Source: a virus
Taxonomy: Duplodnaviria; Heunggongvirae; Uroviricota; Caudoviricetes
Reading direction: 5' to 3' (one strand)
Virus record (IMG/VR): IMGVR_UViG_2671180439_000005
Length of the DNA: 33,721 bases
In this document: piece after piece, positions 1-33,721 of the stretch
How positions within the stretch are numbered: the first letter of the stretch is position 1
Layout of the letters: every line of letters starts with the position of its first letter
Program-made: the position numbers and the translations under genes
The notes under the pieces: generated by a model
What the model was told of the DNA's origin: nothing
What the model saw: only the letters and a program-made list of their open reading frames with translations
The model's database searches: none

Positions 1-219
1 TTACATCCACATAATTTGCTGCCCTGACGGCAACGGGTGCGGCCTCACGGCGTGGACTTCTCCCGGCTTCACGATGTATCTCTGTACCGACTCATAAGTG
101 ATGAACGTGGCGCTGCAATTCACGTTCTGGCACTGGTGATAACGCTCTTTTGTCGTGTCAGTGATATAGCGGCTTGTACGCGCATGTGCGGCATGCTGGC
201 ATAAAGGACAATGAAACAT
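1..219 (-). CDS. ogr: Ogr, zinc-finger late-gene transcription activator (72 aa)
   Basis: Track ORF 1..282; internal ATG at 217-219 gives MFHCPLCQHAAHARTSRYITDTTKERYHQCQNVNCSATF..., which matches P2 Ogr as I recall it (Cys4 finger CPLC...CQNVNC). Confidence 0.85.
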   Translation of the reverse strand: MFHCPLCQHAAHARTSRYITDTTKERYHQCQNVNCSATFITYESVQRYIVKPGEVHAVRPHPLPSGQQIMWM

Positions 220-300
220 CGCGAGCACCTCTTCCGGTTTTGTTGATGGTGCCATTTTAGTTAATTTATCCTTATAAAACAAATAGATAAAATAAAAACA

Positions 301-1464
301 TCACTCATCATCTTCTGTTTCGTACTCCACATCAGAAAGCCTGACCTCAAGCTCCAAGGACGTCGTGAAGCCGCTATTATTCAGAAAATGTGTCACCTTA
401 GTGATTGTCCAGTCCTGCTCGTCTATGACGCGCTTAAAGCCTGACACTTTAACCGGTGTTTCCGTGTAAATATCTGCCCGACCGGTAGCCAGGCTGATGG
501 AGAACTCCGCAACGCCCCGTTGCAGTTTATCCCACTTCGCCTGAGCGGCGCGCATGGCCTGCGCTTTCGTGGCATATACCGTGGTCAGGGCAAAAACATT
601 GTCAGCCTCACCGGCCATATATTCACCTTCGCGCGCTTCCGGTACTTTTGGCGCTTTCTTCTGCCTGACCGGTTTCGCTTTTGGGTGCTCCAGTGCGCGC
701 AGGTGTTTTTCTTTCTTTTTGCGTTTCAGTTTTACCTTCTGCTTTTGCGGCTTCGGGTCTTTGGTGTGAAGCCACTTTGCCGTTACGCCGGTATAGGCTC
801 CACGGTCAGCAATCGCAAAATGATGACGGTCGCCGTCGCTGCGGGTGATGGTAATCTGCGGGATTTTTTTACCGCTGGCCGTCACCCCCTGCCCCGCTTT
901 GAGAAACAACAGTTTTCCCATTTTTACCGACACCTCACCGCCGTTGCGTTCTGCAAGACGGGTCAGGAATTTCGCATCAGACTCCTGCGACTGGTCGATG
1001 TGCGGGATTTTAATTCCGGCCAGTGACGGAGCGACACTGGCTTCCAGCTTGTTACGGGAGGCTATCGCCTCAACAATCGCACCGAGCGTGGTGTCATGCC
1101 AGGAGCCTTCACGGCGGGAATTGAGCGTCCCGCGGAAATCTGCACTCCGGGCGCGGATGGTAACCACATCCGGCGCGCCCCGGTGTTCAACCTCATCAAC
1201 GGTGAATTTCCCTTTGCATACCAGGGCAAAACCTTTCCAGCCGATATACACCGTCAGGACAGCGCCACGAATCGGTAGCCCGACCTGCCCGTCGGCGTCG
1301 TTCAGTTCAATATCAAGCTGGTCAGCCTCAAAGCCCCGGTTATCCGTCAGGGTCATGCTCATCAGACGGTCGCTGATATTGCCGGTAATATCCCTGCTGT
1401 CGAGCATCAGCATGTAATCCGGCGTCAGCGTACTGCCTGCATCAAATGTCAGCGCATCCAGCAT
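301..1464 (-). CDS. D: Tail protein gpD (387 aa)
   Basis: Track ORF; sequence recognisable as P2 gpD including the lysine-rich KPQKQKVKLKRKKKEK segment; start overlaps U stop (TAATG). Confidence 0.85.
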   Translation of the reverse strand: MLDALTFDAGSTLTPDYMLMLDSRDITGNISDRLMSMTLTDNRGFEADQLDIELNDADGQVGLPIRGAVLTVYIGWKGFALVCKGKFTVDEVEHRGAPDVVTIRARSADFRGTLNSRREGSWHDTTLGAIVEAIASRNKLEASVAPSLAGIKIPHIDQSQESDAKFLTRLAERNGGEVSVKMGKLLFLKAGQGVTASGKKIPQITITRSDGDRHHFAIADRGAYTGVTAKWLHTKDPKPQKQKVKLKRKKKEKHLRALEHPKAKPVRQKKAPKVPEAREGEYMAGEADNVFALTTVYATKAQAMRAAQAKWDKLQRGVAEFSISLATGRADIYTETPVKVSGFKRVIDEQDWTITKVTHFLNNSGFTTSLELEVRLSDVEYETEDDE

Positions 1465-1943
1465 TATCCCGCCTCCGTCATACCCGTGAATTTAGTCGCC
1501 ATACTGCCAGCCTTACCGATGAGCGATTCCGCCTGTTTACCGATATCGCCATAAAGCGCGGCCAGTGATTCATCAACGCGGGTGAGCGACAGCGTAAAAT
1601 CAATTTTTCGGGGTGTGCCGTCTGCAAAGAAAATACTCCCTGTTTCACTCACCTTACTGATGACATACATGCCGTAAATCATGCCGGTGCCATCCAGCAA
1701 CGGCCACGCCCGACCTTCCTCTGCCATCAGCCTGAGCGTGGTCATCGTCAGCTTGCCGCCGGTCAGTTCGGGATAAAGCACACCGGCCAGCGTGATGTTT
1801 TCCTCACCCACACCGAGAAACTGAAAGGCATCCCGTTTGCCGATACGGGAATTTGACGGCCAGCGATAATCTGATTCACGCTGCATGGTCTGGTGTGGCA
1901 GCGTCTGGCGCATAAAAACAAACATACCTAACGCGAGCATCAT
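1464..1943 (-). CDS. U: Tail protein gpU (159 aa)
   Basis: Track ORF; near-identical to P2 gpU as recalled (MMLALGMFVFMRQTLPHQTMQRESDYRWPSNSRIGKRDAFQFLGVGEE...). Confidence 0.85.
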   Translation of the reverse strand: MMLALGMFVFMRQTLPHQTMQRESDYRWPSNSRIGKRDAFQFLGVGEENITLAGVLYPELTGGKLTMTTLRLMAEEGRAWPLLDGTGMIYGMYVISKVSETGSIFFADGTPRKIDFTLSLTRVDESLAALYGDIGKQAESLIGKAGSMATKFTGMTEAG

Positions 1944-1957
1944 TTTTCGTCACCTCC

Positions 1958-4405
1958 TTAACCGTCATGCATCATGCTGGCACGGGCGCGCGCACGTTTA
2001 TCCCGCTCGTATTTTTCGAGCGCATCCTGTAACTGGCGGTCGAGCTGTGTCCCCGGCGCAGTACCACCCGTCAGGCTGATGTGATATTCGTTTTTACTCT
2101 GGTCCACATAAGAGCGGCCAGCCGGTGCCGTGACCGGCTGATAAGCCTGATAGCCTGCATAAGAGCTGGTCGCCGGAATATAACCACCGCTGCCATACGT
2201 GGCGGCTTGAGTTCTGGCGGCGGTCTGGTCAAGTGTGTCTGACTCTTTGTTGATAACACCGAGTTTTTCCAGTACCCAGTCAATACCGCTGCGCAGTTTG
2301 TTGAACGCATTAAGCGGCAGCATCAGCGCGTCAGCCAGTGCCTGCCCGAACATGACCCCCGTGTCACGGCAACTGTTCAGGGTGTCCTGAGTGGCTTTGA
2401 CCGGGGCAATCAGGTTTTTAAACCACTGCCACGCGGCCTGTAACTTTTCGCCCAGCCAGTCGAACACCGGCTTAAGTGGCGTGAACAGTTCCCCCACCGG
2501 CGCAAATGCCGCTTTCAGCCCTTCCACCACACCGCCAAAGAATGCGCTGACAGGCTCCCAGTATTTACGGATAAGCAACGCCCCGGCGACAATGGCGGCC
2601 ACCACGGCCACAACCGGCCAGCTAATCGCCCCGATGGCGGTCATAACAGCACTGCCAACCGTCGTGAAGACTGCCCCCATTGCGCCTGCTGCCGCGATGA
2701 TGGCATTGATGCCAGTGATAACCGGCCAGGCTACAAGACCAATGGCACCGATGATGCCAATAAGCGCCAGCGCGCCACCGACAATGAGGCCGATGGTTGA
2801 CGCCAGTGATTTGTTTTTCTGGATCCAGCCGTCGAGTTTTAACACATACTTTGTGGCCGTCTGCGTGAGCTTACGCAGTGCGCCTTCCTGCTGGTCAAAC
2901 AGGTCTGTCCCCACCGCCTCATAAGCGGACTGAAACTCCTTAAAGTCACCGCCGAGGTTGTCCTGCATGATATTTACCAGCTCGGCAGTCTTCCCGTCTG
3001 AGGCTTTAAACGCAGCGGTCAGTTTGTCCAGCTTTCCGGTTGAGGCGGCAGTCATCAGCACGGCGGCGGCTGAGCTGGCCTCCTCCCCGAAAATAGTTTT
3101 CATGTATTCAGCCTGCTGGGCAGTACCGAGCCGGTTTTTCTCAAAACTGGCCTGCATTTCTTTCAGAATGGTAAATATTGGCCGGGTGTTTCCCTTGCTG
3201 TCTGAGGTTTTCACGCCAAGCTCTTTGAGTGCATCCCATGCTTTTCCCGTCGGTGCCTGCAGGCGGCTTAACACGGCACGGCTTCCCGTCCCCGCCATTG
3301 AGCCTGTGATTTTTGCATCATGCAGCGCCCCGACCATTGCGGCGGTTTCTTCAATGCTGACACCGGCATTTTTTGCCACAGGTGCGGCATAGGTCAGCGC
3401 ATCGCTCATGCCGTCAAAATCGGCGGCGGTTTTGTTCATCGTCATGGAGAGAACATCCCCGATATGAGCGACCTTATCGTTTGAAAGCTGAAAGGCGGAT
3501 TTCATCCCCATCAGCAGGGCGGCGTTTTCTTCCATCGTGCGGCGGTTCGCCAGCGCCATATTCAGCGTGACCGGCGTTGCCGCCTGAATGGCATCAACAT
3601 CCCCACCCGCTTTCGCGATGATTATCTGTGCACCGGCCGCATCATCCGCCGAGGCGGCGGTATTGTCGCCGAGCTGGCGCGCCTGTTTGCGTAGTACGGT
3701 CATTTCGGCGGAGTCTTTTGCCACTCCGAGCACGGCCTGCAATTCTGAGTTTTTCTGCGCAAACTCATAACCGGGCATCAGCAGCTTAACTCCGGCCATC
3801 GTTCCCGCCGCCGCAATCCCCACACCGGCAGCGCCCACTGAGGCCATATTTCCGGCCAGTTCCTTGCCGGCCTGATAACGCTGTTTGACTGCGTTAAGTT
3901 TTGCCTGTTGTGCACTGACACGCGCCAGTGCATCGCGCTGACGGTTAAGCTGTGCGGTGGTTTCACTGATACGGTTTTTCAGCCCCTGCTCATCATGTGC
4001 AAGATTGCGGGTATTAATTCCCACAGCGGCCAGTTCCCGCTGCTGGCGCTTAACGGAATCCGTCAGGCGGTTATATTTCGCCTGTAAGTCCTCCGCCGCA
4101 CGCTTCGCGGATTCCAGCACTTTCGCCTGAGCACGTGTCGGACGTTCAGTGTTTTTAAACTGTGTGGCAAGGGCTTCGGCCTCCTGCCGTGCCTTTTCAA
4201 GTGCATGACCAGTCACGGCGAGCTGTGCGCTGGTCTTGCGAAATCCCTCAATACGGGATGCGTGACCGTTCAGCTCGCGCAGTGATTTTTGTGTTTCCCG
4301 GATATCCCCCGACAGCGACTTGCTCGCTGTGCGGATGGATTTAAACGGGCGGGATGCCTGGTCAACAGCCCTGAGCAATACCTGTAATTTTACATTGTTA
4401 CTCAT
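1958..4405 (-). CDS. T: Tail tape measure protein gpT (815 aa)
   Basis: Track ORF; long coiled-coil N-terminal half, Gly/Ala-rich hydrophobic centre; position between E/E' and U as in P2. Confidence 0.85.
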   Translation of the reverse strand: MSNNVKLQVLLRAVDQASRPFKSIRTASKSLSGDIRETQKSLRELNGHASRIEGFRKTSAQLAVTGHALEKARQEAEALATQFKNTERPTRAQAKVLESAKRAAEDLQAKYNRLTDSVKRQQRELAAVGINTRNLAHDEQGLKNRISETTAQLNRQRDALARVSAQQAKLNAVKQRYQAGKELAGNMASVGAAGVGIAAAGTMAGVKLLMPGYEFAQKNSELQAVLGVAKDSAEMTVLRKQARQLGDNTAASADDAAGAQIIIAKAGGDVDAIQAATPVTLNMALANRRTMEENAALLMGMKSAFQLSNDKVAHIGDVLSMTMNKTAADFDGMSDALTYAAPVAKNAGVSIEETAAMVGALHDAKITGSMAGTGSRAVLSRLQAPTGKAWDALKELGVKTSDSKGNTRPIFTILKEMQASFEKNRLGTAQQAEYMKTIFGEEASSAAAVLMTAASTGKLDKLTAAFKASDGKTAELVNIMQDNLGGDFKEFQSAYEAVGTDLFDQQEGALRKLTQTATKYVLKLDGWIQKNKSLASTIGLIVGGALALIGIIGAIGLVAWPVITGINAIIAAAGAMGAVFTTVGSAVMTAIGAISWPVVAVVAAIVAGALLIRKYWEPVSAFFGGVVEGLKAAFAPVGELFTPLKPVFDWLGEKLQAAWQWFKNLIAPVKATQDTLNSCRDTGVMFGQALADALMLPLNAFNKLRSGIDWVLEKLGVINKESDTLDQTAARTQAATYGSGGYIPATSSYAGYQAYQPVTAPAGRSYVDQSKNEYHISLTGGTAPGTQLDRQLQDALEKYERDKRARARASMMHDG

Positions 4406-4825
4406 TCGTGTTTCCGCTTCGCCGGAGCGCCTTTTCGCGCCATGTGATAAGTTCGGTCAGGCTCATGGGATACAGTTCTGATGGCGGCCAGTGAAATATC
4501 ACTGCCACATCCGCCATCAGGTCATCGACCGAGAGATTTTTCGGAAACGTCACTGCACCGAGTTCGGCGACAAAAAACCGACCACCTTACCGGCCAGCGC
4601 CACAAGGTCAGGCAGTTCCAGCGCGGCGACCTCCTGCTCGGTCAGCATCGGTGCCGTCATGCGCGGCAGCACTTTAATCAGTGCATCGACTTCGGAGTTT
4701 GCGACCGCAGCCAGACTGACACCGCGCAGCGTCCCGGCATTGGGTTTCATCAGCGTGACCTGTTCGATAACCTGCTCACCACGCTTGACCGGATTGTCCA
4801 GGGTAATCACATTTTCTTTGTTCAT
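4398..4825 (-). CDS. E+E': Tail assembly chaperone E+E' made by programmed -1 ribosomal frameshift (about 142 aa)
   Basis: Slippery T_TTT_TTG on the minus strand (plus 4571-4577) in the GFL codons of E; -1 frame continues FVAELGAVTFPKNLSVDDLMADVAVIFHWPPSELYPMSLTELITWREKALRRSGNTNE to TAA at 4398-4400, overlapping the T start at 4405; same architecture as P2 E/E+E'. Confidence 0.7.
4550..4825 (-). CDS. E: Tail assembly chaperone gpE (91 aa)
   Basis: Track ORF; matches P2 gpE; contains slippery heptamer near its 3' end. Confidence 0.8.
   Translation of the reverse strand: MNKENVITLDNPVKRGEQVIEQVTLMKPNAGTLRGVSLAAVANSEVDALIKVLPRMTAPMLTEQEVAALELPDLVALAGKVVGFLSPNSVQ
4571..4577 (-). promoter_or_regulatory. 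-1 frameshift slippery site for E+E'
   Basis: Plus-strand caaaaaa = minus-strand TTTTTTG in the X_XXY_YYZ register of the E reading frame. Confidence 0.65.
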
Positions 4826-4881: not shown

Positions 4882-5400
4882 TCACAGGCCGATATTGCGG
4901 CGGTGTTGCTCCAGCCGGTCGGCGCCGTTCACCTTCTCAATCATGTTGATGGTGTCGATTTCGACCAGCTCCTTACCGTCCATCGTCAGCCGGAAATAGG
5001 TGCAGACCACGGAAATTTTCGACTCGGTGTCTTCTCCCTGTTTACCCTCGCCGGTGTCGATTTCTTTCTGACGTCCACGCATGACCACCTCGACGGCTAC
5101 CGTTTCGCCGGTATCGTCGCGCTGGTAAGAGCCTGCAAAACGAATCGGCACAGCATCCACACCGGTTGCGGCGTAAAGCTCCCAGATAACCGAATCCGGG
5201 AAGCCCCCGAGCGACCACTCCATTGACAGCGCATCGTCATCAAGGCCGAGGTCTACCGGTGCGCTTCCGTTCATCCCCGCACCGCGATAGTTTTCGAGTT
5301 TACGGGTCAGTTTTGGCAGCGTGACGGACTTTGCAACGCCCTGATAGCTGTAGCCGTTCAGAAAGACGTTCATTAACTTGAGTTTGCGCGGCATTGCCAT
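4882..5400 (-). CDS. FII: Tail tube protein gpFII (172 aa)
   Basis: Track ORF; sequence recognisable as P2 FII; same length as P2. Confidence 0.85.
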   Translation of the reverse strand: MAMPRKLKLMNVFLNGYSYQGVAKSVTLPKLTRKLENYRGAGMNGSAPVDLGLDDDALSMEWSLGGFPDSVIWELYAATGVDAVPIRFAGSYQRDDTGETVAVEVVMRGRQKEIDTGEGKQGEDTESKISVVCTYFRLTMDGKELVEIDTINMIEKVNGADRLEQHRRNIGL

Positions 5401-5412
5401 CGGTCAGGCTCC

Positions 5413-6603
5413 TTAATTGCTGTTAACCGAAGTGACCAGATTTGCCAGGTATTTATCGGTAATACGCTGGCGCAGGGTCAGGTTTTCGAGAGGAGGCACC
5501 GGTGTATAGTCGTAGTCGATATACAGTTTTCCGGCCTTGAGGGTTTCCGCATCATTGGATTCTTCGCTGAACCAGCAGGTCGCATCCACGATATAGCCGT
5601 TTGTTTTCAGCTCACGGAATTTGGCATTGATGCCGTCAACGATGTCGCGAATCAGCGTTGCGGTGATGGGCTTGTCCACCGCCCACATGTGCGCCTCAGC
5701 CATCGTGTCGGCCAGCACCTGCGCGGTGCGGGTGTAGTTTTCAAAGAGGAACAGCGGGTCATCAGAGCAGGTACGGTTACCCCAGAAGCGGAAACCGTCG
5801 CGGCGAATCAGCGTTGTGACGCCTGACTCGTTAAGCAGGTCAGCATCGGTGCCGGACTCCTGCAAATCCCAGAATACAGAGGCGCTGATGCCGGTAACAC
5901 CGTTCACCCCGACGTTGGACAGCGTTTTATGCCAGCCCTGCTCCTGGTCGATTTTAGCGCGCAGACCCAGCGCACGGGCGGTGGCATACGCGGTGGCGGT
6001 GGTACTGGTGACCGTATCCCATGCGAGGAAATCCGGCCAGATGACCATCAGCTCACGCTGGCTGAAATTCTGGCGGTAGGCTTTCACCTCGGAAATGGTC
6101 TTACATCCCCATGCGCTGATATACCCGAAAGCACGCAGCTTCTGACAGACTGATGCCAGTGCAACAGCCACCTCTTTGGTATCCAGTCCCGGCACGCCGA
6201 GAATACGCGGTTTTACACCGGTTACCGACTCCGCCGCCAGCAGGGCTTTCAGTCCGGTGTACTGACCGTTTTCGTCGGTGGTGCCGATGATATTGGAAAC
6301 GGTCTGCGCGAGTTTCGTTTCTTCGTCTTCGCCGGTGCCGTCTTCCACACGCACGACAACGGTGACCGGTTTTGACTGGTCGGCGATGGCCTGTAACGAT
6401 GCCGCCAGCGTGCCTTTTTTACCGGCCTTCGCAATTGCGCTCTGCACATTGGTAATCAGCACCGGTTTATTGAGGGGGAAGGTTTCCGCATCTGCATCGC
6501 TGGCCGTGCAGACCATGCCGACAATGGCCGTGGATACGGTGGAAATGACGCGGGTGCCGTCGTTAATCTCCAGCACCTGCACGCCATGATGATAGTCACT
6601 CAT
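5413..6603 (-). CDS. FI: Contractile tail sheath protein gpFI (396 aa)
   Basis: Track ORF; sequence recognisable as P2 FI; same length as P2. Confidence 0.85.
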   Translation of the reverse strand: MSDYHHGVQVLEINDGTRVISTVSTAIVGMVCTASDADAETFPLNKPVLITNVQSAIAKAGKKGTLAASLQAIADQSKPVTVVVRVEDGTGEDEETKLAQTVSNIIGTTDENGQYTGLKALLAAESVTGVKPRILGVPGLDTKEVAVALASVCQKLRAFGYISAWGCKTISEVKAYRQNFSQRELMVIWPDFLAWDTVTSTTATAYATARALGLRAKIDQEQGWHKTLSNVGVNGVTGISASVFWDLQESGTDADLLNESGVTTLIRRDGFRFWGNRTCSDDPLFLFENYTRTAQVLADTMAEAHMWAVDKPITATLIRDIVDGINAKFRELKTNGYIVDATCWFSEESNDAETLKAGKLYIDYDYTPVPPLENLTLRQRITDKYLANLVTSVNSN

Positions 6604-6863
6604 CCGTTTAACTCCGTGGTTAATGGGTGCAACTATTTTCTGTTGGGCAGTGCATGAGACGCTATTTGACCTGGCTGGTCAGTGGATGAAACAACAGATA
6701 AAGAAAAGGCGGGCAATCAGCTTGCCTGCCTTGATTTGTACTCTCTCTGTTTCCAACTGACAAATTACGTAACCAAAATTCTGTCAAATCTGACAGCCTG
6801 TTTTGAGCGAAGAGCGGACCTGAGATTGTGGTATGCTAATTTATGGGGAGCAGGTCAATTGTA

Positions 6864-7556
6864 TTAGTTATCTTTTTGCTTTTCTTTATCCCATTTCTTT
6901 GCAGTGGTCTGATACCACTCTTCACGTGCTCGTTGTTCCTCGGCTCTGTCACTTGAATTATAGTTGTCTGTTTTAATTTTTTTGCTTCCCTGGGAAATCG
7001 GCCTCCAGTCTTCTCTAATCTTTTTCATCTGCTCAGCTATCTGTGTCATTGGACTCCTTGCACCTAAGTAGCTAACCCCCTCGAAAGAAGCCATATCATA
7101 AGAATACTCATTCCGCTCTCTTTCAGTTGAGCCCGGCTGTTTAGACCAGCTAATACTAACAGAATAAACTTGATCTTTAATCTGGTCATACTTACAAAGA
7201 CTGCTGTTAAGGGAATGGCCGTTTTTCAATACGCTAACCTTGCTAAATGGTATACCTTCATTTTTTCTATGTTCTGCATTAACCAGTGGGGGATTAAATC
7301 CGACTTCAATATCATAGGCTGGGGCATTTCCGGTATTAGCAATATTGATATCAAAATAAAAAGCAGCCCAAGAATTTGGTTCAAGAGTCACAACGACATG
7401 AGGTTGAACTGATGCGTCAACCATCCTTTTTGTCTCGTCTGCTAATAGCCTTGTTACTCTCCACAAGAAAAATGTAGCAACTGCTGTTAGCAATGCTGCC
7501 AAAGCTGAGATAAGTGTACTTACTGTGTTTATATGCTCTGCGATAAATTCGATCAT
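6864..7556 (-). CDS. Hypothetical protein, 230 aa, single N-terminal TM anchor, Lys/Glu-rich C-terminus (cargo)
   Basis: Track ORF with ATG start and AGGA RBS 6 nt upstream; hydrophobic segment INTVSTLISALAALLTAVATFFLW; AT-rich; no P2 counterpart known to me. Confidence 0.55.
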   Translation of the reverse strand: MIEFIAEHINTVSTLISALAALLTAVATFFLWRVTRLLADETKRMVDASVQPHVVVTLEPNSWAAFYFDINIANTGNAPAYDIEVGFNPPLVNAEHRKNEGIPFSKVSVLKNGHSLNSSLCKYDQIKDQVYSVSISWSKQPGSTERERNEYSYDMASFEGVSYLGARSPMTQIAEQMKKIREDWRPISQGSKKIKTDNYNSSDRAEEQRAREEWYQTTAKKWDKEKQKDN

Positions 7557-8227: not shown

Positions 8228-8233
8228 TATATG

Positions 8234-25464: not shown

Positions 25465-26498
25465 TGAGTAAGAAAAAAGGGAAAACACCGCAGCCAGCGG
25501 TGAAAACAATGACTGCCAGCGCCCCGAAAATGGAGGCATTCACCTTTGGTGAGCCGGTGCCGGTACTCGACCGCCGTGATATTCTGGATTACGTCGAGTG
25601 CATCAGTAACGGCAGATGGTATGAGCCACCGGTCAGCTTTACCGGTCTGGCAAAAAGCCTGCGTGCTGCCGTGCATCACAGCTCACCGATTTACGTCAAA
25701 CGTAATATTCTGGCCTCAACGTTTATCCCGCACCCGTGGCTTTCCCAGCAGGATTTCAGCCGCTTTGTGCTGGATTTTCTGGTGTTCGGTAATGCGTTTC
25801 TGGAAAAGCGCTACAGCACTACCGGTAAGGTCATCAGACTGGAAACCTCACCGGCAAAATATACCCGCCGTGGCGTGGAGGAGGATGTTTACTGGTGGGT
25901 GCCATCCTTCAACGAGCCGACACCTTTCGCGCCCGGCTCCGTGTTTCACCTGCTGGAGCCGGATATCAATCAGGAGCTGTACGGCCTGCCGGAATATCTC
26001 AGCGCCCTTAACTCTGCCTGGCTGAATGAGTCGGCCACGCTGTTCCGCCGCAAGTATTACGAAAACGGCGCACATGCCGGATACATCATGTACGTCACCG
26101 ATGCCGTGCAGGATCGCAACGATATCGAAATGCTTCGCGAAAACATGGTGAAGTCGAAAGGCCGCAACAACTTTAAAAACCTGTTTCTCTACGCCCCACA
26201 GGGAAAAGCCGACGGTATTAAAATTATCCCGCTCAGTGAAGTGGCAACGAAGGACGATTTTTTTAATATCAAAAAAGCCAGCGCCGCAGACCTGCTGGAC
26301 GCGCACCGCATCCCTTTTCAGTTGATGGGCGGCAAGCCGGAGAACGTCGGGTCGCTGGGTGATATTGAGAAAGTGGCAAAGGTCTTTGTCCGCAATGAGC
26401 TTATCCCGTTACAGGACAGGATCCGCGAGATAAACGGCTGGCTCGGTCAGGAGGTCATCCGCTTTAAAAACTACTCACTGGACACTGACAACGGCTGA
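25464..26498 (+). CDS. Q: Portal protein gpQ (344 aa)
   Basis: Track ORF; ATG overlaps the P stop (TGATG); same length as P2 Q. Confidence 0.85.
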   Translation: MSKKKGKTPQPAVKTMTASAPKMEAFTFGEPVPVLDRRDILDYVECISNGRWYEPPVSFTGLAKSLRAAVHHSSPIYVKRNILASTFIPHPWLSQQDFSRFVLDFLVFGNAFLEKRYSTTGKVIRLETSPAKYTRRGVEEDVYWWVPSFNEPTPFAPGSVFHLLEPDINQELYGLPEYLSALNSAWLNESATLFRRKYYENGAHAGYIMYVTDAVQDRNDIEMLRENMVKSKGRNNFKNLFLYAPQGKADGIKIIPLSEVATKDDFFNIKKASAADLLDAHRIPFQLMGGKPENVGSLGDIEKVAKVFVRNELIPLQDRIREINGWLGQEVIRFKNYSLDTDNG

Positions 26499-26503
26499 AC
26501 ATC

Positions 26504-26527
26504 GCCGCCTGCGGGCGGCTTTTTTAC
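26504..26527 (+). terminator. Rho-independent terminator after Q
   Basis: gccgcc-tgcg-ggcggc hairpin followed by tttttta. Confidence 0.6.
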
Positions 26528-26667
26528 ACCCCGTCATCACGCCCTCACACGCTCACCACCGCACAAAACACCCCGCAGACACACCAACGCCTCAACGGGC
26601 AGACTAAGCGCCTTCACGACGCGCTCAGACGCTGAAAAAATAAAATCAGCACCACCGCCAGCGCGCA

Positions 26668-26686
26668 GTGCTATCCCCGCCTCGCC
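26668..26686 (-). other. cos cohesive-end site
   Basis: Reverse complement GGCGAGGCGGGGATAGCAC differs at one position from the 19-nt P2 cohesive end GGCGAGGCGGGGAAAGCAC as I recall it; located between Q and the A-side cargo, as cos is in a P2 prophage. Confidence 0.55.
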
Positions 26687-26901
26687 TGCCCGCTTTATGG
26701 GTCGGTTTTAATGCAGGTGCACGAATACACCGGAGGCGCGCCGGCACTGGTGGCGCTCAGACGCAACAGGGGAGGAAAACGCATGCAATTGAATGCATTT
26801 CTAGGCACACCTAAAAATGAAAAAATGTTATGACAATTAATCATTTTAAACACACTGATTAAGGGTAGAATTCTCCTAGTAAAATCATAGAAAAACCGCT
26901 A

Positions 26902-27831
26902 TCAAACCAGGCTTTTGCCTTGCTTCATTTTTTTAGATGAGTCTAAAAATTTGAAATTATCATTAGATGAAAATATTCTTTCTGCGGTATGCCGAATGAC
27001 TGAAGTATTGAAGACCGCAGCCTGCTCCTCATTACAACTGAATACACCCTCATGACCATCAAACTCGCCCGCCAAAAGAAGGTTTTTTGATACTGGGAAC
27101 AAAACTAAAGTGTCTTTTACACCAAACCCGGGGGAATAAGGGCCTCGTGCTAATTCAGGATTAGTCCACATTAAGCAAACTGGGTTATCTGAAGTTATAA
27201 ATGACCCTTGCCCATCAGATATGGTCATAAGTGACCAGTTGCGTTGATGCAACAACTTGGTGATAACAGGTACACATTTCATTTCCATATCTATCATGAA
27301 CTCTCTGATTACATTGATTTCGAAATTATCCCCATCCACAAAATTTTTAATTTTTTCGTAAGCGAGATCATATGGCAAAGACTCACCCATTTCTTTCTCA
27401 TAAGCTAATTTGCAATCGTCCCAACGCTCAGCCGAACTAACTGAGGATTTCATGATAAACTTTGCTATTTGTTTCAATGGAGATGATAAATGTTCTCGCT
27501 GAGCAGGCGTACGTATTGCCAATAAGGAAATAAACTCCAGAATAACATCTTTGGTTTCGCCTGAAAACTCGCCCCCCTCCTCAAGTTTTCTTAAATGAGT
27601 AGCGACACTGCCTTCAAACTCTGCAAGAGAACTCTCGAGATAGTTTGGGTCAACTCCATCCAATTCTAATCGGTTGAAATCTCTAACCCCCCCGACATTG
27701 CGAGTATTACTCTCAAAGGTTTTGCGCTCCTTTAAATCTATTACAGTTAATTTTGATTTTTTCCCCCCATTACTTGTAAACCCTTTCAAATAACATTGGG
27801 ATAAAAAATGATGATGCCTTGCAACACTCAT
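26902..27831 (-). CDS. DUF4238-family protein (309 aa from ATG; cargo at the tin/old slot)
   Basis: N-terminal HHHFLSQCYLKGF signature typical of DUF4238 as I recall it; ATG at Met15 of the track ORF with GGAG RBS (the track start is GTG); AT-rich. Confidence 0.6.
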   Translation of the reverse strand: MSVARHHHFLSQCYLKGFTSNGGKKSKLTVIDLKERKTFESNTRNVGGVRDFNRLELDGVDPNYLESSLAEFEGSVATHLRKLEEGGEFSGETKDVILEFISLLAIRTPAQREHLSSPLKQIAKFIMKSSVSSAERWDDCKLAYEKEMGESLPYDLAYEKIKNFVDGDNFEINVIREFMIDMEMKCVPVITKLLHQRNWSLMTISDGQGSFITSDNPVCLMWTNPELARGPYSPGFGVKDTLVLFPVSKNLLLAGEFDGHEGVFSCNEEQAAVFNTSVIRHTAERIFSSNDNFKFLDSSKKMKQGKSLV

Positions 27832-27934
27832 ACTCAGCTCCGTTATGGCTATAATCGCATAAATAATAAGCACTTATATTGCAATCATCTAGTTAAATAC
27901 ACAATATTTATGACTCCGAAATTTCATTAAATCA

Positions 27935-30106
27935 CTATTGATAGGTTTTACCAATTGGTGCCAGCTCGAAATGGATGCGTGGAATCTGCGAACGTTCAGC
28001 CTTTGTCATCCGCCCTGATGGCGCTATCTGGTACGGTTTTAATGGTTCGCAGTTTCTTTGTTGCCAATTCGGTCTCGGTGCACCATGTTTTAATGCACTC
28101 CTGAGCACCGTCACAACTTCCGGGTCATCCCATCCGATAACACCACTATCAACCAGATTTAACACCGCTGCGGCATGCTCAGACGGTGTAGGGTGCATAA
28201 CCGGAACGTCACCGCCGGTGAACTTTCCACAGTTATTGACAGGACTCCGAGGCGCGGCGATGCCGCTTTTTAAAGTCAAAGGCTCAACGACCGGCACTTT
28301 CGGAACAATGCGCCAGTCCGTCGTTCTGGTGATATGAATATGACGCGCGCCGAGATGCGGCGCGTAAATGCCGACCACTCTCTCGACTTCTTCCTCGTAC
28401 TCGTTAACTTCATCCGACGGACTACGGGCAACCCTGACAGTCTGACAATCGCGCGGAACATTTGCCCCACCCTGCGCGCTGATATACAACGCAAAATCAC
28501 CACTGTCTGCGGCAGCGCGTGCAGCCTCGACGCGTTCGTCAAACTCATCAGCAATGCTGACGCCGCGAGGCAATTTGCGTAGTTCACGGTAAGCCCCCAT
28601 TGTCGGCAGGCCAACCGTTTTAAATTGCGGAATGCGCCACGTTGACGCCCATGCGGTAACAGCCGCGGCAGTGTCTTTCAGCGGCCTGCCGGTATCGTTA
28701 TCGAGCTGACCATCCAGTGCATAGCCATCGATGTTTTTTGAGATGTATTTCGCGATATATCCCGCAGCACCGCCCCGGTTAAGGTGTTTTGCCTGAAAAC
28801 GGTTTCGCGCGGCTCCTCTTTCGTCACCATCCTCTTTGAGCGCATAGCGACGCATGATTTCGATAATCTGGTTACGCTGGCGTGGATTACAAAAAAGCAT
28901 CATATGCCAGTGCGGCGTTCCGTCGTGGTGTGGCTCGACGACTCGCAAACCGTAGACCTGTAAATCATTATCCTTGAATGCCGTGCGCATCAGGCTCCAG
29001 ATGCGGCAGAGATAACGCTGCGCATCCTTTGGATTAAATGCCTCATCATTCCAGCCGTGATTTAGCTGGACGGTTTTACTTTCGCCTTTTCCGACCTGAC
29101 GTGTCGGGTGATACTTTGACGGCGCGGTCAGAGTGATAAACATCCCCACATCACCCTCTGCGGCGGCGTAACGCTCAATACCGGCGATGGTGTTCATCAG
29201 CTCCATCCGGCGAATTTCAGGATTAGAAATACTGCCCATCACCTTACTGATAAGGTCGATGCGCTCGCCGGTTTCCCTGTTTTCGAGGTCACACGATTTA
29301 AGAAATTCCAGATTTGCCTGGCGGCGTGCACACACATCACGAATGGCATGTTTACTGGCATAAGGAGAACGGTCTTTATTGACCTCCCCGACAGCAATCA
29401 GTAACGCCTCATGCCAGCGCATACGCTGGCCTTTAAGCTGATGAGTCCACCACTCATCGTTAAACAGACGGGCAATGGCAGAATATGCCTGCCTCGTGGT
29501 CATCTGTCCTTTACGGTATTTTTTCCAGTAGAGAGGGGAAATATTGAAAGCACGTGCAGCGCCAGCAACATGACCATACAGATGCGCCTGCGCCTCATCT
29601 GTAAACAGCGATTCTTTCTCGCCATGTGCATCAACCCATGCATCGCAGAGTTCCTCATACATCATGAAAAGCTGCGATGAGATACGGGCGGCAAACTTTT
29701 TCAGCTCCTTGTCATTCATCCCCGGCAGACGCGCATAATGGTCACGCTCTGCCAGAAACAGCAACGACGCGTCGGTGTTCATTTCATGGCGCTGATTCAC
29801 GCGCTCAATACGCGGCCATAAACGGCGCTGAAAAGTGGATGTGAGGAAATAAAACCCGTGCACCGGGCTTTTATTGCGCCGGATGTAGTCATAGCGTGAA
29901 GTAAACAGCGAGCGCAAAAAGTAAGGCAGGCGATTAATCGTGGATAAAACACCTTGCACCTGACGCATCTCGTCACGTGTAAGGGGTCTTTCGCGCCCGA
30001 CGGCCTCGCGTGGCGCGTTCCATGCATAAGCACCGGTAAACGTCTCACCGGTGCCTGAGGCAAATGCTGACGGAGGGACAAAACGCCCGGAGGCTTTAAC
30101 GGCCAT
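27935..30106 (-). CDS. A: Replication initiation protein gpA (rolling-circle nickase, 723 aa from ATG)
   Basis: From Met15 of the track ORF (MAVKASGRFVPPSAFA...) the sequence tracks P2 gpA; the last roughly 80 residues differ from P2 A as recalled. Confidence 0.85.
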   Translation of the reverse strand: MAVKASGRFVPPSAFASGTGETFTGAYAWNAPREAVGRERPLTRDEMRQVQGVLSTINRLPYFLRSLFTSRYDYIRRNKSPVHGFYFLTSTFQRRLWPRIERVNQRHEMNTDASLLFLAERDHYARLPGMNDKELKKFAARISSQLFMMYEELCDAWVDAHGEKESLFTDEAQAHLYGHVAGAARAFNISPLYWKKYRKGQMTTRQAYSAIARLFNDEWWTHQLKGQRMRWHEALLIAVGEVNKDRSPYASKHAIRDVCARRQANLEFLKSCDLENRETGERIDLISKVMGSISNPEIRRMELMNTIAGIERYAAAEGDVGMFITLTAPSKYHPTRQVGKGESKTVQLNHGWNDEAFNPKDAQRYLCRIWSLMRTAFKDNDLQVYGLRVVEPHHDGTPHWHMMLFCNPRQRNQIIEIMRRYALKEDGDERGAARNRFQAKHLNRGGAAGYIAKYISKNIDGYALDGQLDNDTGRPLKDTAAAVTAWASTWRIPQFKTVGLPTMGAYRELRKLPRGVSIADEFDERVEAARAAADSGDFALYISAQGGANVPRDCQTVRVARSPSDEVNEYEEEVERVVGIYAPHLGARHIHITRTTDWRIVPKVPVVEPLTLKSGIAAPRSPVNNCGKFTGGDVPVMHPTPSEHAAAVLNLVDSGVIGWDDPEVVTVLRSALKHGAPRPNWQQRNCEPLKPYQIAPSGRMTKAERSQIPRIHFELAPIGKTYQ

Positions 30107-30371
30107 ATGAGCCAAAAGCCTCTGAACAACGCTTGCTGAGTTGCTCAACCTGCGCGTTTAAATCAGCAAAAGACTTTGCGCTTCCGGTCAGAATATCGTG
30201 ATGCATCAGGCCGGAAACAAGCTGGCTTAATTTCGGGTAATAACCAACCACCGCCAGCCATTCCTGACCGGCGTTTTTACCGCTTTCAGCTCTCTTTTTC
30301 TCGTGGAGAATAAACTGAAAGCTGTCACTGGTAACGACATAACGTTCGCCAATTTCAATACGAATACTCAT
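30096..30371 (-). CDS. Hypothetical early-operon protein (91 aa)
   Basis: Track ORF with ATG start; translationally coupled to neighbours; in the block of small ORFs P2 carries between B and A. Confidence 0.55.
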   Translation of the reverse strand: MSIRIEIGERYVVTSDSFQFILHEKKRAESGKNAGQEWLAVVGYYPKLSQLVSGLMHHDILTGSAKSFADLNAQVEQLSKRCSEAFGSYGR

Positions 30372-30592
30372 GACGTTCTCCGGTAATGTTTGTTTTTTGC
30401 TTCAAAGACTGACTGGCAGGAAACACAACGCGTGGCTGACGGATAAGCCGCACGACGGGCAGCAGGTATTGGCGCGTCACACTCTTCGCAAACCAGCGCA
30501 GAAACACCGCAATGCTTTACCCTTGCCGCGTTAATCTGGCGCTCCAGTAATTCAGCCTGTTGTTCCTGAATAAAATCTACGTTGTCCGGCAT
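30368..30592 (-). CDS. TraR/DksA-type C4 zinc-finger protein (74 aa)
   Basis: CGVSALVCEEC...C..C four-Cys motif in a 74-aa protein; ATG overlaps the upstream stop. Confidence 0.6.
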   Translation of the reverse strand: MPDNVDFIQEQQAELLERQINAARVKHCGVSALVCEECDAPIPAARRAAYPSATRCVSCQSVFEAKNKHYRRTS

Positions 30593-30894
30593 TACCAGCT
30601 CCTTTTGTCGTTAAGTTTTTTAAATTCATCAGCGCAATAGCTGGCAATTTCTGTCGTTAATTTCGTCAGTTCATCCACGGAGGAGATTTGCTTGTGAAAT
30701 ACAGCGCGTTTAACAAGCAAATTGACCACATCAGACAGGAGATTTAATTCGTTCTGATAAATCGCGATAACAGACTCAGTTATTTCGCGTTTTTCTTTAT
30801 CAAGACCAAGTTGAATAAGAGATAAATCGCCATTTCTCATAACGGCGATTTTTAAGGCGTTATTCAGTAATACAACTGAACGAGAACAGGACAT
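30592..30894 (-). CDS. Hypothetical early-operon protein (100 aa)
   Basis: Track ORF (first codon TTG, second ATG); TGATG overlap with the upstream gene. Confidence 0.5.
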   Translation of the reverse strand: MSCSRSVVLLNNALKIAVMRNGDLSLIQLGLDKEKREITESVIAIYQNELNLLSDVVNLLVKRAVFHKQISSVDELTKLTTEIASYCADEFKKLNDKRSW

Positions 30895-31118
30895 CAAAGC
30901 ACCTCCCCGCGAGACAATCCGATATTGTGAAATTTTTCCGACTCCTGACTGAGCAGCTCGACTATCTCCACGCGGGATAACTCCGCCTTTGTGATGTGGC
31001 GAATCATGGCGTCAAGATGAGAAGAAAAGCGCGTCGCTGCGTCGGCCTGTGCTTCGGTTCTGGCCTGTTGCAGCAGTAATGCGTATTTACCGCACTGATT
31101 TTCAGAAACTGTATGCAT
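30894..31118 (-). CDS. Hypothetical early-operon protein (74 aa from ATG)
   Basis: Met12 of the track ORF with GGAG RBS 6 nt upstream; the track start is TTG. Confidence 0.5.
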
Positions 31119-31181
31119 GACTTTCTCCAGGCAAAAAGAAGCCCCGCACAATTAAGTGCGTTAAAAACTCTGGTTAATTAC

Positions 31182-31682
31182 TTAATGCAGATATTGCTCT
31201 GGTTTTACCGACGTCAGAATTGTCGGTGCATACTCAAACAGGCTGAATAATTCACGTAATGCACGGAATAAAGCATCACGCCAGTAACATGATTCTTCAT
31301 TAATTCGCCAGTATGGCTGGTTGAATTCTTTTTCAGTCAATCCGGCATGCATAAATAAAGTACGACGCTGACTGACTGTTAAAAAACTAATATATGCATA
31401 CTCACTTGCGCCAACCTGACGGCGTTTTGAGAATGCCCCACGCAATTCATCAATTGCACATACCAGTCGTTCACGTTCGACATCATTCATTTCTTCAAAA
31501 CGCATCGTTGCGTGACGCTGTTTTAACTGCGCATGGAAGCAAACCGTTAGCCGTTCGCGTACCATCATCTGATTATAATAATCGCATGTCTCCTGCCAGC
31601 GAGGGACGGCAAGATGCTTACCAATTATCCGGCGCATAGCTGCTGGCTGTTTTTCGACGAGATTAAGCGTCATCACTGTCAT
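31182..31682 (-). CDS. B: Replication protein gpB (166 aa)
   Basis: Track ORF; near-identical to P2 gpB as recalled (MTVMTLNLVEKQPAAMRRIIGKHLAVPRWQ...). Confidence 0.8.
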   Translation of the reverse strand: MTVMTLNLVEKQPAAMRRIIGKHLAVPRWQETCDYYNQMMVRERLTVCFHAQLKQRHATMRFEEMNDVERERLVCAIDELRGAFSKRRQVGASEYAYISFLTVSQRRTLFMHAGLTEKEFNQPYWRINEESCYWRDALFRALRELFSLFEYAPTILTSVKPEQYLH

Positions 31683-31915
31683 TTCCAGACCCTCCGGCTT
31701 TTCAGAAAGGTCAGAGCCTTTTTTAACGGACTCTGTTTTTTGGTACGGATAATGATTCCCTTGCGCCCCTTCCCGTGGGTGATGGTGAAGTCAATCGCCC
31801 TGGGGCTTTCGTTACGCAATAACTGAGCAATACAACGAGGCTCGTTCATCCTTTCCACCTTAAGCCGCACGGCCATGTCTTGATTTGCTGTAACTAATGC
31901 GATTTTTCCAGTCAT
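31679..31915 (-). CDS. Hypothetical small early protein (78 aa from Met9; start uncertain, alternatives at 31876 and 31939)
   Basis: Track ORF 31679..31939 begins with TTG; lies between cox and B where P2 has orf78; overlaps the cox 3' end. Confidence 0.4.
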   Translation of the reverse strand: MTGKIALVTANQDMAVRLKVERMNEPRCIAQLLRNESPRAIDFTITHGKGRKGIIIRTKKQSPLKKALTFLKSRRVWK

Positions 31916-32216
31916 GCCATTCTGTCGGAGCTTCATCAACTAGCTGGGCTGCGTACTTGTCCCACTCACGACGATTAATCCATAACTCAGCATGACCGCC
32001 CGGCTTTAATGGGTCCGTCATATAAAAGGCTGGTAACTTGCCTGCTTTCGCCATTTCAGCAACAGCACGAGGCGTCTTACCGATGTAAAGAGCAAAACCC
32101 TCTTTCGAGAGCAAATCCGACGGTGCGGCTGCAAGTTTGATGTCACATTTTTTACTTTTTGTGAGATCAGATACTTTTTCTCCAACATCGTTATTCATTT
32201 CTGATCCAATACTCAT
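31860..32216 (-). CDS. cox: Cox-like excisionase/early-lytic regulator (118 aa from ATG with GAGGA RBS)
   Basis: HTH-like segment EGFALYIGKTPRAVAEMAKAGKLPAFYMTDP resembles P2 Cox; divergent from C; longer than P2 Cox (91 aa). Confidence 0.55.
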   Translation of the reverse strand: MSIGSEMNNDVGEKVSDLTKSKKCDIKLAAAPSDLLSKEGFALYIGKTPRAVAEMAKAGKLPAFYMTDPLKPGGHAELWINRREWDKYAAQLVDEAPTEWHDWKNRISYSKSRHGRAA

Positions 32217-32320
32217 TTTGATATCCTCAACTTTGGTGCCATTCAATCAGAGCTATTTGAAGCCGCTCTGCGTTGTTCTGGCGTGTCGCATACAACATAA
32301 ATTACGAGATACGACAATTC

Positions 32321-32632
32321 ATGTCAAATACACAAATCACATCTCAAGCAGAGAAACTCGCACTTATTCGGGAATCAGAAAGAATGACAAGGAAGCAAGT
32401 TGCTGAATTAACTGGAATTAACTACAACACCTATGCTGGATATGAGCAGGGAAAAGTAAAGATGTCTTTTGACGCAGGTATGAAATTTTTCAAGCCAGAA
32501 AGATTTCGCAAGTACCGTGACTGGTTCATGTTTGATGAAACTGATCCCGCTGGCGGACAAATAGCCCCGGCGCTCGCGCACATTGGGCAAGACTCAACAA
32601 CCTTGCACCACTCAGACCAAAAGACTGGCTGA
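32321..32632 (+). CDS. C: Immunity repressor C (103 aa from internal ATG)
   Basis: MSNTQITSQAEKLALIRESERMTRKQVAELTGINYNTYAGYEQGK...GGQIAPALAHIGQDSTTLHHSDQKTG resembles P2 C, including the C-terminal GQIAPALAH...GQKTG. Confidence 0.75.
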   Translation: MSNTQITSQAEKLALIRESERMTRKQVAELTGINYNTYAGYEQGKVKMSFDAGMKFFKPERFRKYRDWFMFDETDPAGGQIAPALAHIGQDSTTLHHSDQKTG

Positions 32633-32725
32633 CGATTTATTCAGCATATGTGTGCAGTAAATGTACGAAAGAAAATTGCATTAATTTTCAAGTAGTAGAA
32701 GTAAACAGCGTCATCGGAGGGCTTT

Positions 32726-33721
32726 ATGTCTATTAAAAAGCTCGATGATGGTCGTTATGAAGTGGACGTCAGACCGCAGGGTGCAGATGGAAAACGTATC
32801 AGGCGGAAATTTAAAACTAAAGGTGAAGCTCAAGCATTCGAACGTCATGTCCTGGTTAACTACCACAACAAAGAGTGGTTGGAGAAGCCGGCCGACCGCC
32901 GAACTCTTACAGAGTTGTTAGGCAGATGGTGGATATATCACGGAAAATCACATGAGCGTGGAGATATTGAACGAGGGCGTTTGACGACAATAATCGCCAA
33001 ATTTGCCGAGATGGGAGTGTCCAGGGCGGACCAGCTAACAAAGAAAACGATAACTGATTATCGCGTTGTAATGATGAACGATGGCCTAAAACCAGCCAGC
33101 GTAAATCGGCATCTGGCAATAATGAGCGGGATGTTCACCAAGTTAATTGACGCCGGTGAGTATCACTCTCACAACCCGTTCCGTGAGGTTAAGCGGTTAC
33201 GTGAAGCTGTTACGGAAATGGCTTTTTTGTCCAGTGAAGAGATTACGCGGCTGTTATCCATGCTTGATGGTGATGAGTTAAATGCAACTCTGGTCTGCCT
33301 TTCTACTGGTGGACGCTGGAGTGAAGTGTCTAATTTGAAAGCTGAACACATCATTAACCAGATGGTTACGTTTATGAAAACTAAAAACGGAAAGCACAGG
33401 ACAATTCCCGTTTCGCAGGACCTGATTAAACGGATCAAGACCAAAAATTCAGGCAGGCTTTTTAATGCCAGTTACTACAAAGTGCGCAACGCTCTCAGGG
33501 AAGTAAAACCCGATTTACCTGACGGACAGGCAGTGCATGTTTTGAGGCATACATTTGCCACACATTTTATAATGAATGGAGGTAACATAATCACATTGCA
33601 GCGCATCCTGGGTCATTCTAACATTCAGCAAACTATGACCTACGCACACTTTGCACCGGATTTCTTACAAGATGCTGTGACTCTTAACCCGGTGTCAGGA
33701 ATGTCCATAATGCGTCCATAA
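32726..33721 (+). CDS. int: Tyrosine integrase (331 aa)
   Basis: Track ORF; MSIKKLDDGRYEVDVRP... with C-terminal HxLRHT...Y catalytic region (HVLRHTFATH, TMTYAHF); matches P2 Int along its length. Confidence 0.9.
   Translation: MSIKKLDDGRYEVDVRPQGADGKRIRRKFKTKGEAQAFERHVLVNYHNKEWLEKPADRRTLTELLGRWWIYHGKSHERGDIERGRLTTIIAKFAEMGVSRADQLTKKTITDYRVVMMNDGLKPASVNRHLAIMSGMFTKLIDAGEYHSHNPFREVKRLREAVTEMAFLSSEEITRLLSMLDGDELNATLVCLSTGGRWSEVSNLKAEHIINQMVTFMKTKNGKHRTIPVSQDLIKRIKTKNSGRLFNASYYKVRNALREVKPDLPDGQAVHVLRHTFATHFIMNGGNIITLQRILGHSNIQQTMTYAHFAPDFLQDAVTLNPVSGMSIMRP

Follow-up and report, generated by a model that had tools for sequence, protein, structure and literature searches.

P2-like coliphages carry accessory genes, or morons, in three regions of their genomes, a textbook trait of the group that is described in the paper on phage R18C. 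In a 2026 survey of 1,511 P2 elements, several P2 hotspots held defence genes, and 10% of the elements with complete defence systems had systems in more than one hotspot; a preprint from 2024, which covered about 1,000 P2-like phages, recovered the same hotspots, and rapid swapping of their defence cargo has been documented in the literature. Some individual proteins were of particular relevance here. Fun(Z) of phage P2 (528 aa) blocked T5, and a DUF4238 gene cloned from a P2 hotspot (pFR101, Escherichia coli TA007) provided strong T7 resistance (Rousset 2022; PMC9122126). In the prophage-borne CapRel-SJ46, autoinhibition is relieved when the pseudo-zinc-finger in the variable C-terminal part senses a capsid protein of a phage (Zhang et al. 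2022); the YxxY motif of this protein docks on the active site, and the reaction triggered by the capsid protein is tRNA pyrophosphorylation. Here we analysed a DNA stretch of 33,721 nt from a Caudoviricetes virus (IMG/VR record IMGVR_UViG_2671180439_000005), referred to below as the window. Judged by its gene content and order, it is a complete P2-like (Peduovirus) prophage of E. coli, extending from ogr to int, with AT-rich genes in the Z/fun, orf30 and tin/old slots. We consider it probable that this was a standard P2-like prophage whose islands were horizontally acquired moron cargo at three tolerated positions, and that the cargo consisted of individual genes.

The map of open reading frames (ORFs) displayed the P2 gene order in reverse and was colinear with both the P2 annotation and a prophage of E. 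coli E6474. Namely, ogr, D, U, T, E, FII and FI were followed by a gap, then by G, H, I, J, W and V, another gap, S, R, the lysis genes, X, L, M, N and O; after O came P and Q on the opposite strand, a further gap, A, small early genes and int. The first gene, encoding the late-gene activator Ogr (positions 1-219, minus strand), aligned to ogrK of the E6474 prophage, and the last one was the integrase gene (32726-33721, plus strand; ORF and comparison with E6474). Since the limits of the window coincided exactly with the stop codons of ogr and int, the att sites lay outside it. A megablast search against phage genomes revealed 95-97% identity to Peduovirus genomes (R18C, pro147, P2_AC1 and others) over 74-80% of the query, which represented the backbone. 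The E6474 prophage, located in the pflA-pflB interval of NZ_CP116981.1, was even more similar: except for two indels, it matched the entire window at 99.86-99.97% identity. Gene order, the three intergenic cargo positions, the inverted repeats and the operon terminators were all as in P2 and P2-like coliphages. The difference from P2 was in the cargo genes, which were not homologous, and in the Z/fun slot, which contained two stacked cassettes instead of one.

The three slots were defined by their flanking genes. The Z/fun slot (6604-10925) was located between the tail sheath gene FI (5413-6603, minus strand; an ORF annotated as tail sheath in E6474, P2 and LR-71-1) and the tail fibre assembly gene G (10926-11453, minus strand; ORF and genome comparison). 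The orf30 slot (16013-17317) was bounded by the baseplate gene V (15377-16012, minus strand) and the tail completion gene S (17318-17770, minus strand), and the tin/old slot (26499-27934) by the portal gene Q (25464-26498, plus strand) and the replication endonuclease gene A (27935-30106, minus strand); these four genes were assigned from their ORFs and the E6474 comparison. Each of the three islands was situated beside an operon terminator, in a gap that separated late or early operons. An earlier sequence-only reading of the window had described the cargo as foreign AT-rich genes on a near-P2 backbone and had suggested a check by GC skew and k-mer profile, and this description was supported. 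The guanine-plus-cytosine (GC) content, obtained from a sliding profile and by direct computation, was 55.9% for the backbone but only 34-42% for the slots (39.5% for Z/fun at 6604-10925, 34.2% for orf30 at 16049-17317 and 42.1% for tin/old at 26499-27934). Similarly, the tetranucleotide usage of the three slots deviated from that of 32 backbone chunks with z = 13.6-23.

Moreover, the homology of the window to P2, Wphi, pro147, R18C and LR-71-1 broke at the same two points of the Z/fun slot, 6818/6819 and 10837-10850, and these five phages carried different cargo. Wphi, P2 and pro147 did not have the cargo genes of the window; at the same breakpoints they had unrelated genes or nothing. The P2 proteins from the same slots were not homologous to the cargo either (BLASTP E = 0.43 against Fun(Z) and 0.94 against Orf30). 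An objection to the foreign origin would be that the AT-rich stretches reflected compositional variation inside conserved core genes of this lineage, and two regions outside the slots, namely the C-terminal part of H with G and the early region with int, were indeed AT-shifted as well. However, the absence of the cargo genes from P2, Wphi and pro147 at identical breakpoints, the lack of homology to P2 cargo and the tetranucleotide deviation spoke against this explanation so clearly that we regard it as having next to no chance of being correct. The three AT-rich islands were foreign cargo, not core genes.

The simultaneous occupancy of all three slots, which had been presented as notable, proved to be common. 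P2 itself (with orf30, fun(Z) and tin plus old), R18C and E6474 also had all three slots filled. In Wphi and pro147 the S-V junction was empty; therefore, orf30 was the slot that varied. For an estimate of its occupancy, E. coli records were searched with the empty junction of Wphi; 60 rows, spaced evenly over the 1,672 records, were sampled, and 56 of these rows were informative. The junction was uninterrupted in 37 of the 56, and the slot was filled in the other 19 with insertions of about 0.76-1.4 kb, most commonly the ~874-bp P2 orf30 type. Since none of the five complete genomes of phages or prophages examined had an empty Z/fun or tin/old slot, roughly one third of E. coli P2-like prophages would fill all three. 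The three-slot pattern was a textbook trait on which systematic searches for defence systems have already been based, and alone it changed nothing.

Comparison with other P2-like prophages had also been proposed in order to see which slot contents co-vary. When the lists of the 12 best-scoring genomes per cargo were compared, E6474 was the only one to carry both the small alarmone synthetase (SAS) gene found in the orf30 slot and the DUF4238 gene found in the tin/old slot. Together with the distribution of the two Z/fun cassettes described below, this comparison showed that the slots reassort independently.

The Z/fun slot was resolved further by comparison with E. coli genomes, which divided it into two blocks, cassettes A and B. 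Cassette A (6820-8717; 41.0% GC) corresponded to the Z-region of P2-EC53, R18C and NCTC9008. P2-EC53 (record AJ512682) and R18C had it at 97.5-97.9% identity, including the annotated inverted repeats, but unlike the window they had cassette A alone. Cassette B (8718-10849; 37.4% GC) was a 2,132-bp block that was present in LR-71-1 and NDM6, whereas the E6474 prophage, at 99.9% identity otherwise, did not have it. The latter shared with the window the SAS, DUF4238 and cassette A cargo, and differed from it by the missing cassette B and by an ISVsa5 insertion in the non-coding spacer of cassette A, with a 9-bp overlap at 7623-7631. Window positions 8691-10840 matched LR-71-1, where the large cassette B gene was next to a different gene, encoding a 244-aa protein. 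Outside P2 prophages, cassette B was found at 99.5% DNA identity in E. coli NDM6 (NZ_CP083869.1 stretch, 2501-4636), flanked on one side by a hypothetical gene, in the vicinity of a Gp2 gene of the inovirus type, and on the other by IS66. This non-P2 setting was apparently present in many genomes related to NDM6, which gave matches at identical coordinates.

With respect to frequency, cassette A was identified in 99-107 and cassette B in 75-81 complete E. coli genomes (each about 1.5-2%), and they were adjacent in none of the 5,426 genomes. The Z/fun genes were two unrelated mobile cassettes and not a single system. This outcome bears on the proposal of the sequence-only reading that the unrecognised Z/fun genes together made up one new multi-gene anti-phage system. 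In favour of it, the four genes shared a single hotspot known for frequent defence genes, and none of them had a known function. On the other hand, cassette B was a 2.1-kb insertion missing from a 99.9%-identical prophage, the two cassettes never occurred side by side in the E. coli genomes, and cassette B existed with a different partner gene as well as outside P2 prophages. Homologues of the large protein of cassette B (505 aa) and of the 230-aa protein of cassette A were also found in other taxa without the partner Z/fun genes. In addition, the genes were on both strands and had their own terminator-like hairpins. We conclude that a joint four-gene system is very improbable. The Z/fun genes would rather be individual lysogenic-conversion genes, in two separate cassettes stacked head to tail, probably through a crossover inside a palindrome loop.

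The cassette boundaries pointed to the way in which this stacking might have occurred. The left inverted repeat of the slot (6787-6824) ended in ...AGAGCGGACC, and all cargo started just after it; this element was recognized as a member of an inverted-repeat pair, was annotated in P2-EC53 and contained the 6818/6819 breakpoint relative to P2, Wphi and LR-71-1. On the opposite side, the right palindrome GTCCGCTCTTGGCACAGAGCGGAC (10841-10864), identified by the repeat search and the breakpoint comparison, was located within the right inverted repeat, downstream of G. Every cargo set began after ...AGAGCGGACC and finished at GGTCCGCTCT..., the two being reverse complements of each other, and these cargo-end sequences fell inside the inverted repeats annotated in the P2-EC53 record. 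Related palindromes of the form GTCCGCT...AGCGGAC were present at every cassette boundary (6805-6819, 8694-8717, 8737-8760 and 10841-10864). The full palindrome, GTCCG-N5-GGCA-N3-AGCGGAC, occurred once in phages with a single cassette and twice in those with two (the window and LR-71-1), and in seven phages and prophages its count was equal to the number of cassettes. LR-71-1 provided a second natural two-cassette array: a cassette with the 244-aa protein on the other strand (2942-3676 of the NZ_AP027599.1 stretch), then a palindrome, preceded its cassette B.

The palindrome GTCCGGTAATGGCACGCAGCGGAC at the A/B junction (8694-8717) was a hybrid. Its left half was that of the cassette A end in NCTC9008 and its right half was that of the internal site of LR-71-1, suggesting that the crossover lay in the loop. 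A further palindrome-like element, GTCCGCTGTGAGCGAGGAGCGGAA (8737-8760), was located at the left end of cassette B. The similarity to the non-P2 copy started there, and the block shared with NDM6 extended from this element to the right palindrome. The overall pattern would fit recombination targeted to, or helped by, hairpins, either site-specific or through short homology. The depositors of the P2-EC53 record (Nilsson et al.) reportedly invoked site-specific recombination in the title of their 2004 paper. If exchange were directed by these palindromes, it would stack cargo and shuttle it between P2 prophages and other islands, and it would explain the fast swapping of cargo in P2 hotspots. 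The window and E6474 can be considered as a natural before-and-after pair, which reveals at base-pair resolution the addition of one cassette inside a palindrome loop. This one-cassette difference with its loop crossover was one of the two most interesting by-products of the analysis, the other being a conserved HExxH motif described below.

The tin/old slot had a single gene, encoding a 309-aa DUF4238 protein (26902-27831, minus strand; PADLOC and Pfam matches, with the ATG as in RefSeq). The PADLOC model DUF4238-Pers matched it at 1.8e-219 over profile positions 1-309 of 309, and the Pfam DUF4238 profile at 5e-39 (134.8 bits, cut-off 27). The first 66 residues of the pFR101 insert product, which were the comparable portion, were identical to the window protein (66/66), and the DNA was 87% identical over the comparable 321 nt, comprising the upstream region and the first third of the gene. 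The slot DNA was 100% identical to the E6474 locus annotated as WP_001515549, an accession that appeared in Table S5 of the P2 loci in the Rousset study. As in the system described there, the window had a single gene in the A-Q hotspot with a full-length match to the hidden Markov model. With a coverage of at least 80% required, the DUF4238 cargo was present in 14 of the 5,426 complete genomes of E. coli. On these matches, the tin/old cargo is an already known single-gene anti-phage system. It had been stated that two of the three cargos resembled known defence families; for tin/old this was correct, the family being a validated one, whereas the orf30 cargo did no more than resemble a defence family (through a RelA_SpoT domain and a weak match to part of PDC-S33).

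The orf30 cargo was a gene for a 359-aa stand-alone RelA/SpoT-type SAS-like protein (16158-17237, plus strand), identified by Pfam RelA_SpoT and PDB matches. It was located between the V promoter region and a terminator-like hairpin downstream of S at the end of the O operon (17266-17293, minus strand), where P2 has an annotated O-operon terminator, and it was oriented opposite to the late operons. The V-S interval contained no further ORF of at least 40 aa and thus no antitoxin-sized neighbour. The Pfam RelA_SpoT match was at 1.9e-21, and the best relatives with solved structures were the small alarmone synthetases RelQ, RelP, YjbM and YwaC. The PADLOC candidate PDC-S33 matched at 1.1e-16 in the catalytic domain only (profile positions 48-237 of 349); to our knowledge, this candidate has not been validated experimentally. 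The protein belonged to a very large family, with over 5,600 clusters and lengths that almost always fell within 350-375 aa. It aligned to the RelQ motifs; in 32 diverse homologues the catalytic columns were invariant, and the mean identity to the window protein was 63% over residues 1-205 and 26% over residues 206-366.

This architecture was similar to that of CapRel-SJ46. Both were single prophage-borne ORFs of about 360-370 aa, with a conserved N-terminal RelA/SpoT synthetase, a variable C-terminus and no separate antitoxin. By sequence, however, the two represented different SAS lineages, and CapRel had the YxxY motif. A family profile built from the 32 homologues matched RelQ and RelP at 1e-17 and CapRel-SJ46 (7ZTB/9ERV) at E = 0.0073 over about 70 residues. 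Membership of the window protein in the CapRel subfamily was considered and rejected on this difference (0.007 versus 1e-17), and CapRel was retained as a functional analogy only.

The genomic surroundings of the homologues were also informative. P2-like prophages of Klebsiella pneumoniae had a 55%-identical homologue that occupied the corresponding S-V slot and was oriented as in the window (three contigs, 5001-6077), suggesting that the link between this family and the slot was old and spanned genera. A Bacillus homologue was set among Abi_C, HsdR, McrB_N and RES genes, and a Pseudomonas homologue adjoined an AAA_15 ATPase. Among the complete E. coli genomes, the SAS cargo was present in 14 of 5,426. 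It is plausible that the orf30 cargo is a defence gene from a lineage other than CapRel, which it superficially resembles. Based on the context of the homologues and the CapRel-like layout, we proposed that the protein could be a stand-alone nucleotide pyrophosphokinase acting as a one-protein sensor-effector, like the fused toxSAS. In the resting state, the fast-evolving C-terminal domain would keep the conserved N-terminal synthetase inactive. Recognition of a phage protein would then release the synthetase, and the resulting toxic alarmone or tRNA pyrophosphorylation would abort the infection.

Cassette B had one gene (9033-10550, minus strand), encoding a protein of 505 aa, or 511 aa if counted from an upstream ATG. 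Three hydrophobic segments within the first 100 residues were predicted to be transmembrane helices. The AlphaFold model was an all-helical solenoid with a predicted local distance difference test (pLDDT) score of 83.5; it resembled only generic HEAT/ARM-like and designed repeats, and no viral structural relative was found. No Pfam, NCBIfam or PADLOC family matched the protein, and a profile search of PDB sequences with its family returned nothing significant. The family was widespread in Gamma- and Betaproteobacteria, where it comprised 155 or more clusters at 40-50% identity.

A motif HEGIHQGLQ(D/Y)H, that is, HExxH with a third histidine six residues on, was present in 114 of the 119 full-length homologues of this protein. 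In the window it was HEGIHQGLQYH (9573-9605, residues 323-333 of the 511-aa translation). The motif might indicate a metal-dependent hydrolase, although several observations argued against such an activity: the other five homologues had lost one key residue, the block around HExxH was highly conserved throughout, and the predicted fold showed no similarity to zincin proteases, nor was there a match to a peptidase family. Since the whole block was conserved and the fold was not zincin-like, hydrolase activity is offered as a hypothesis only. Accepting the prediction, cassette B would encode a single membrane-anchored helical-repeat protein with HExxH.

Homologues of the 505-aa protein occurred in diverse settings. 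In Yersinia one adjoined a putAbiC gene, in Delftia another was adjacent to a Lamassu-like block (LmuB_C, DUF3800, MC3 and CTD7), and further ones were in an integrase island of P. aeruginosa and in an SSU5-like phage-plasmid. Phage P2 has Fun(Z) in the same slot, in the same single-gene layout and at a similar size. Homology between the two was considered and rejected, as there was no detectable sequence similarity; the three N-terminal transmembrane helices and HExxH were traits of the 505-aa protein. A defence role for cassette B and the 505-aa family appears plausible, and we gave it a moderate prior.

Cassette A contained three genes. The first encoded a 230-aa protein (6864-7556, minus strand) that was ORF1 of the P2-EC53 Z-region, where the sole label given by the depositors was 'putative lysogenic conversion protein'. 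A single transmembrane helix was predicted at its N-terminus, followed by a beta-sandwich of seven strands, in which an NTGNAPA-like motif was invariant, and by a charged helix at the C-terminus; a structural search gave no informative match. Its homologues were cargo of integrase islands, of the end of an integrative and conjugative element (ICE) and of a Mob_Pre/Prim-Pol element, and in the contexts examined they were never accompanied by the other two cassette A genes. A recent RefSeq annotation (NZ_CM176478.1, 835-1527) named the protein 'DUF8453 domain-containing protein'; DUF8453 was missing from the Pfam version searched, and the family number was recent.

The second gene encoded a 59-aa DUF3606 protein (8048-8227, plus strand; Pfam PF12244 at 4.3e-18, start as in RefSeq WP_001406733), for which no functional literature on DUF3606 was found. 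It was divergent from the 230-aa gene, with a non-coding spacer of about 490 bp between them (7557-8047), the site of the ISVsa5 insertion in E6474. This spacer may be a shared regulatory region. An Rfam search of the whole window, including the spacer, detected no family, and a scan for sigma-70-like promoters found fewer sites than in shuffled sequence and was hence uninformative. A 142-aa ORF (7417-7845) that overlapped the spacer was considered as an additional gene, but it had no family matches and was taken as non-coding.

The third gene encoded a 92-aa protein (8280-8558, plus strand; phrog_1090) from a stand-alone family of roughly 93 aa with 499 representative clusters. Members of this family were also found fused in larger proteins, for example one of 1,507 aa with Baseplate_J and CBM_5_12. 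A fusion homologue matched CRISPR_Cas2 at 1.6e-4 with 22.2 bits, below the 23.8 cut-off, the family profile matched BPSL1038, a Cas2/VapD-like nuclease, at a sub-threshold E = 0.14, and weak Cas2 matches were seen in 3 of 43 family members; a profile search of PDB sequences yielded nothing significant. These weak signals hint that the protein might possibly have a Cas2/VapD-like fold. The DUF3606 and 92-aa genes were only 52 bp apart, with a strong terminator-like hairpin and T-run between them (8233-8252, plus strand; hairpin search), and a bidirectional terminator-like hairpin followed the 92-aa gene (8561-8582). Expression of these two genes may hence be separate, or it may involve attenuation. 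Cassette A would then produce a membrane-tethered beta-sandwich protein and two small cytoplasmic proteins from separate transcription units. We also considered whether this cassette was the system of 'three hypothetical proteins' from the Rousset 2022 study, and rejected this, as there was no PADLOC match. For a defence role of the three cassette A genes, the case was weaker and the prior lower than for the 505-aa family.

The likeliest role of the Z/fun genes would be membrane-associated exclusion or abortive infection directed at competing phages or mobile elements. The argument by which the sequence-only reading had arrived at defence, namely that cargo in these slots is so often defensive, was reasonable and corresponded to a published discovery strategy for this locus; it supplied a prior, not evidence. 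A number of observations weighed against defence. None of the four Z/fun proteins matched any of the 5,027 PADLOC models at E up to 0.01, and no mention of their RefSeq accessions or of that of the SAS was found in the literature. P2 hotspots are known to contain non-defence genes as well, among them partition systems and genes for cytolethal distending toxin (PMC9122126), and the 230-aa family had no defence-gene neighbours in the four contexts read. The SAS was closer in sequence to the genuine (p)ppGpp synthetases RelQ and RelP, its catalytic domain being most like these housekeeping enzymes, than to the tRNA-modifying CapRel, and no YxxY motif was seen by eye in residues 206-366 of its 366-aa translation. 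Moreover, SASs of 12 subfamilies are known from prophage regions with no defence role shown, and the window protein could simply alter host physiology.

These points can be combined into an explanation in which the uncharacterised cargo serves lysogenic conversion unrelated to defence: the SAS would raise (p)ppGpp and thereby affect how the host tolerates stress or persists, the envelope or the interaction with the host would be modified by the membrane proteins, and the small proteins would be regulators. However, such an explanation did not account well for the hypervariable C-terminal half and the defence-island neighbours of the SAS family, or for the AbiC-like and Lamassu-like genes next to the 505-aa family. 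In addition, the genes were cargo of several unrelated kinds of mobile elements, which fits inter-element conflict better than host adaptation. We therefore consider a purely non-defensive function unlikely. The more specific idea, that at least one uncharacterised cargo family is a new single-protein anti-phage factor, with the 505-aa and SAS families as the best candidates, and that the GTCCGCT...AGCGGAC palindromes are targets of hairpin-loop-directed cassette exchange, is put forward tentatively, as a possibility that we would not yet favour. Our preferred reading is the broader one, a standard P2-like prophage with individual horizontally acquired genes inserted where phages of this type would tolerate non-essential DNA. 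The useful output was a short list of single-gene candidates, comprising the SAS family, the 505-aa HExxH family and the 230-aa beta-sandwich family, the last of which was carried by prophages, ICEs and mobilisable elements. Should these candidates turn out to be defensive, the known repertoire of bacterial immunity would gain new sensors and effectors that consist of a single protein.

Compositional anomalies in the window numbered more than the three islands. The C-terminal part of H together with G (10926-12300) had a GC content of 44.6%, and such an AT shift in distal H and G was as expected for a swapped host-range module. The early region with cox, C, int and small ORFs (30150-33721) was at 45.0% GC, below the late-gene backbone, and formed a fourth compositional zone. 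Finally, the tail fibre gene H (12453-13071) matched itself in BLAST at offsets of 132 nt, with 87-91% identity, which indicated that it contains tandem repeats.

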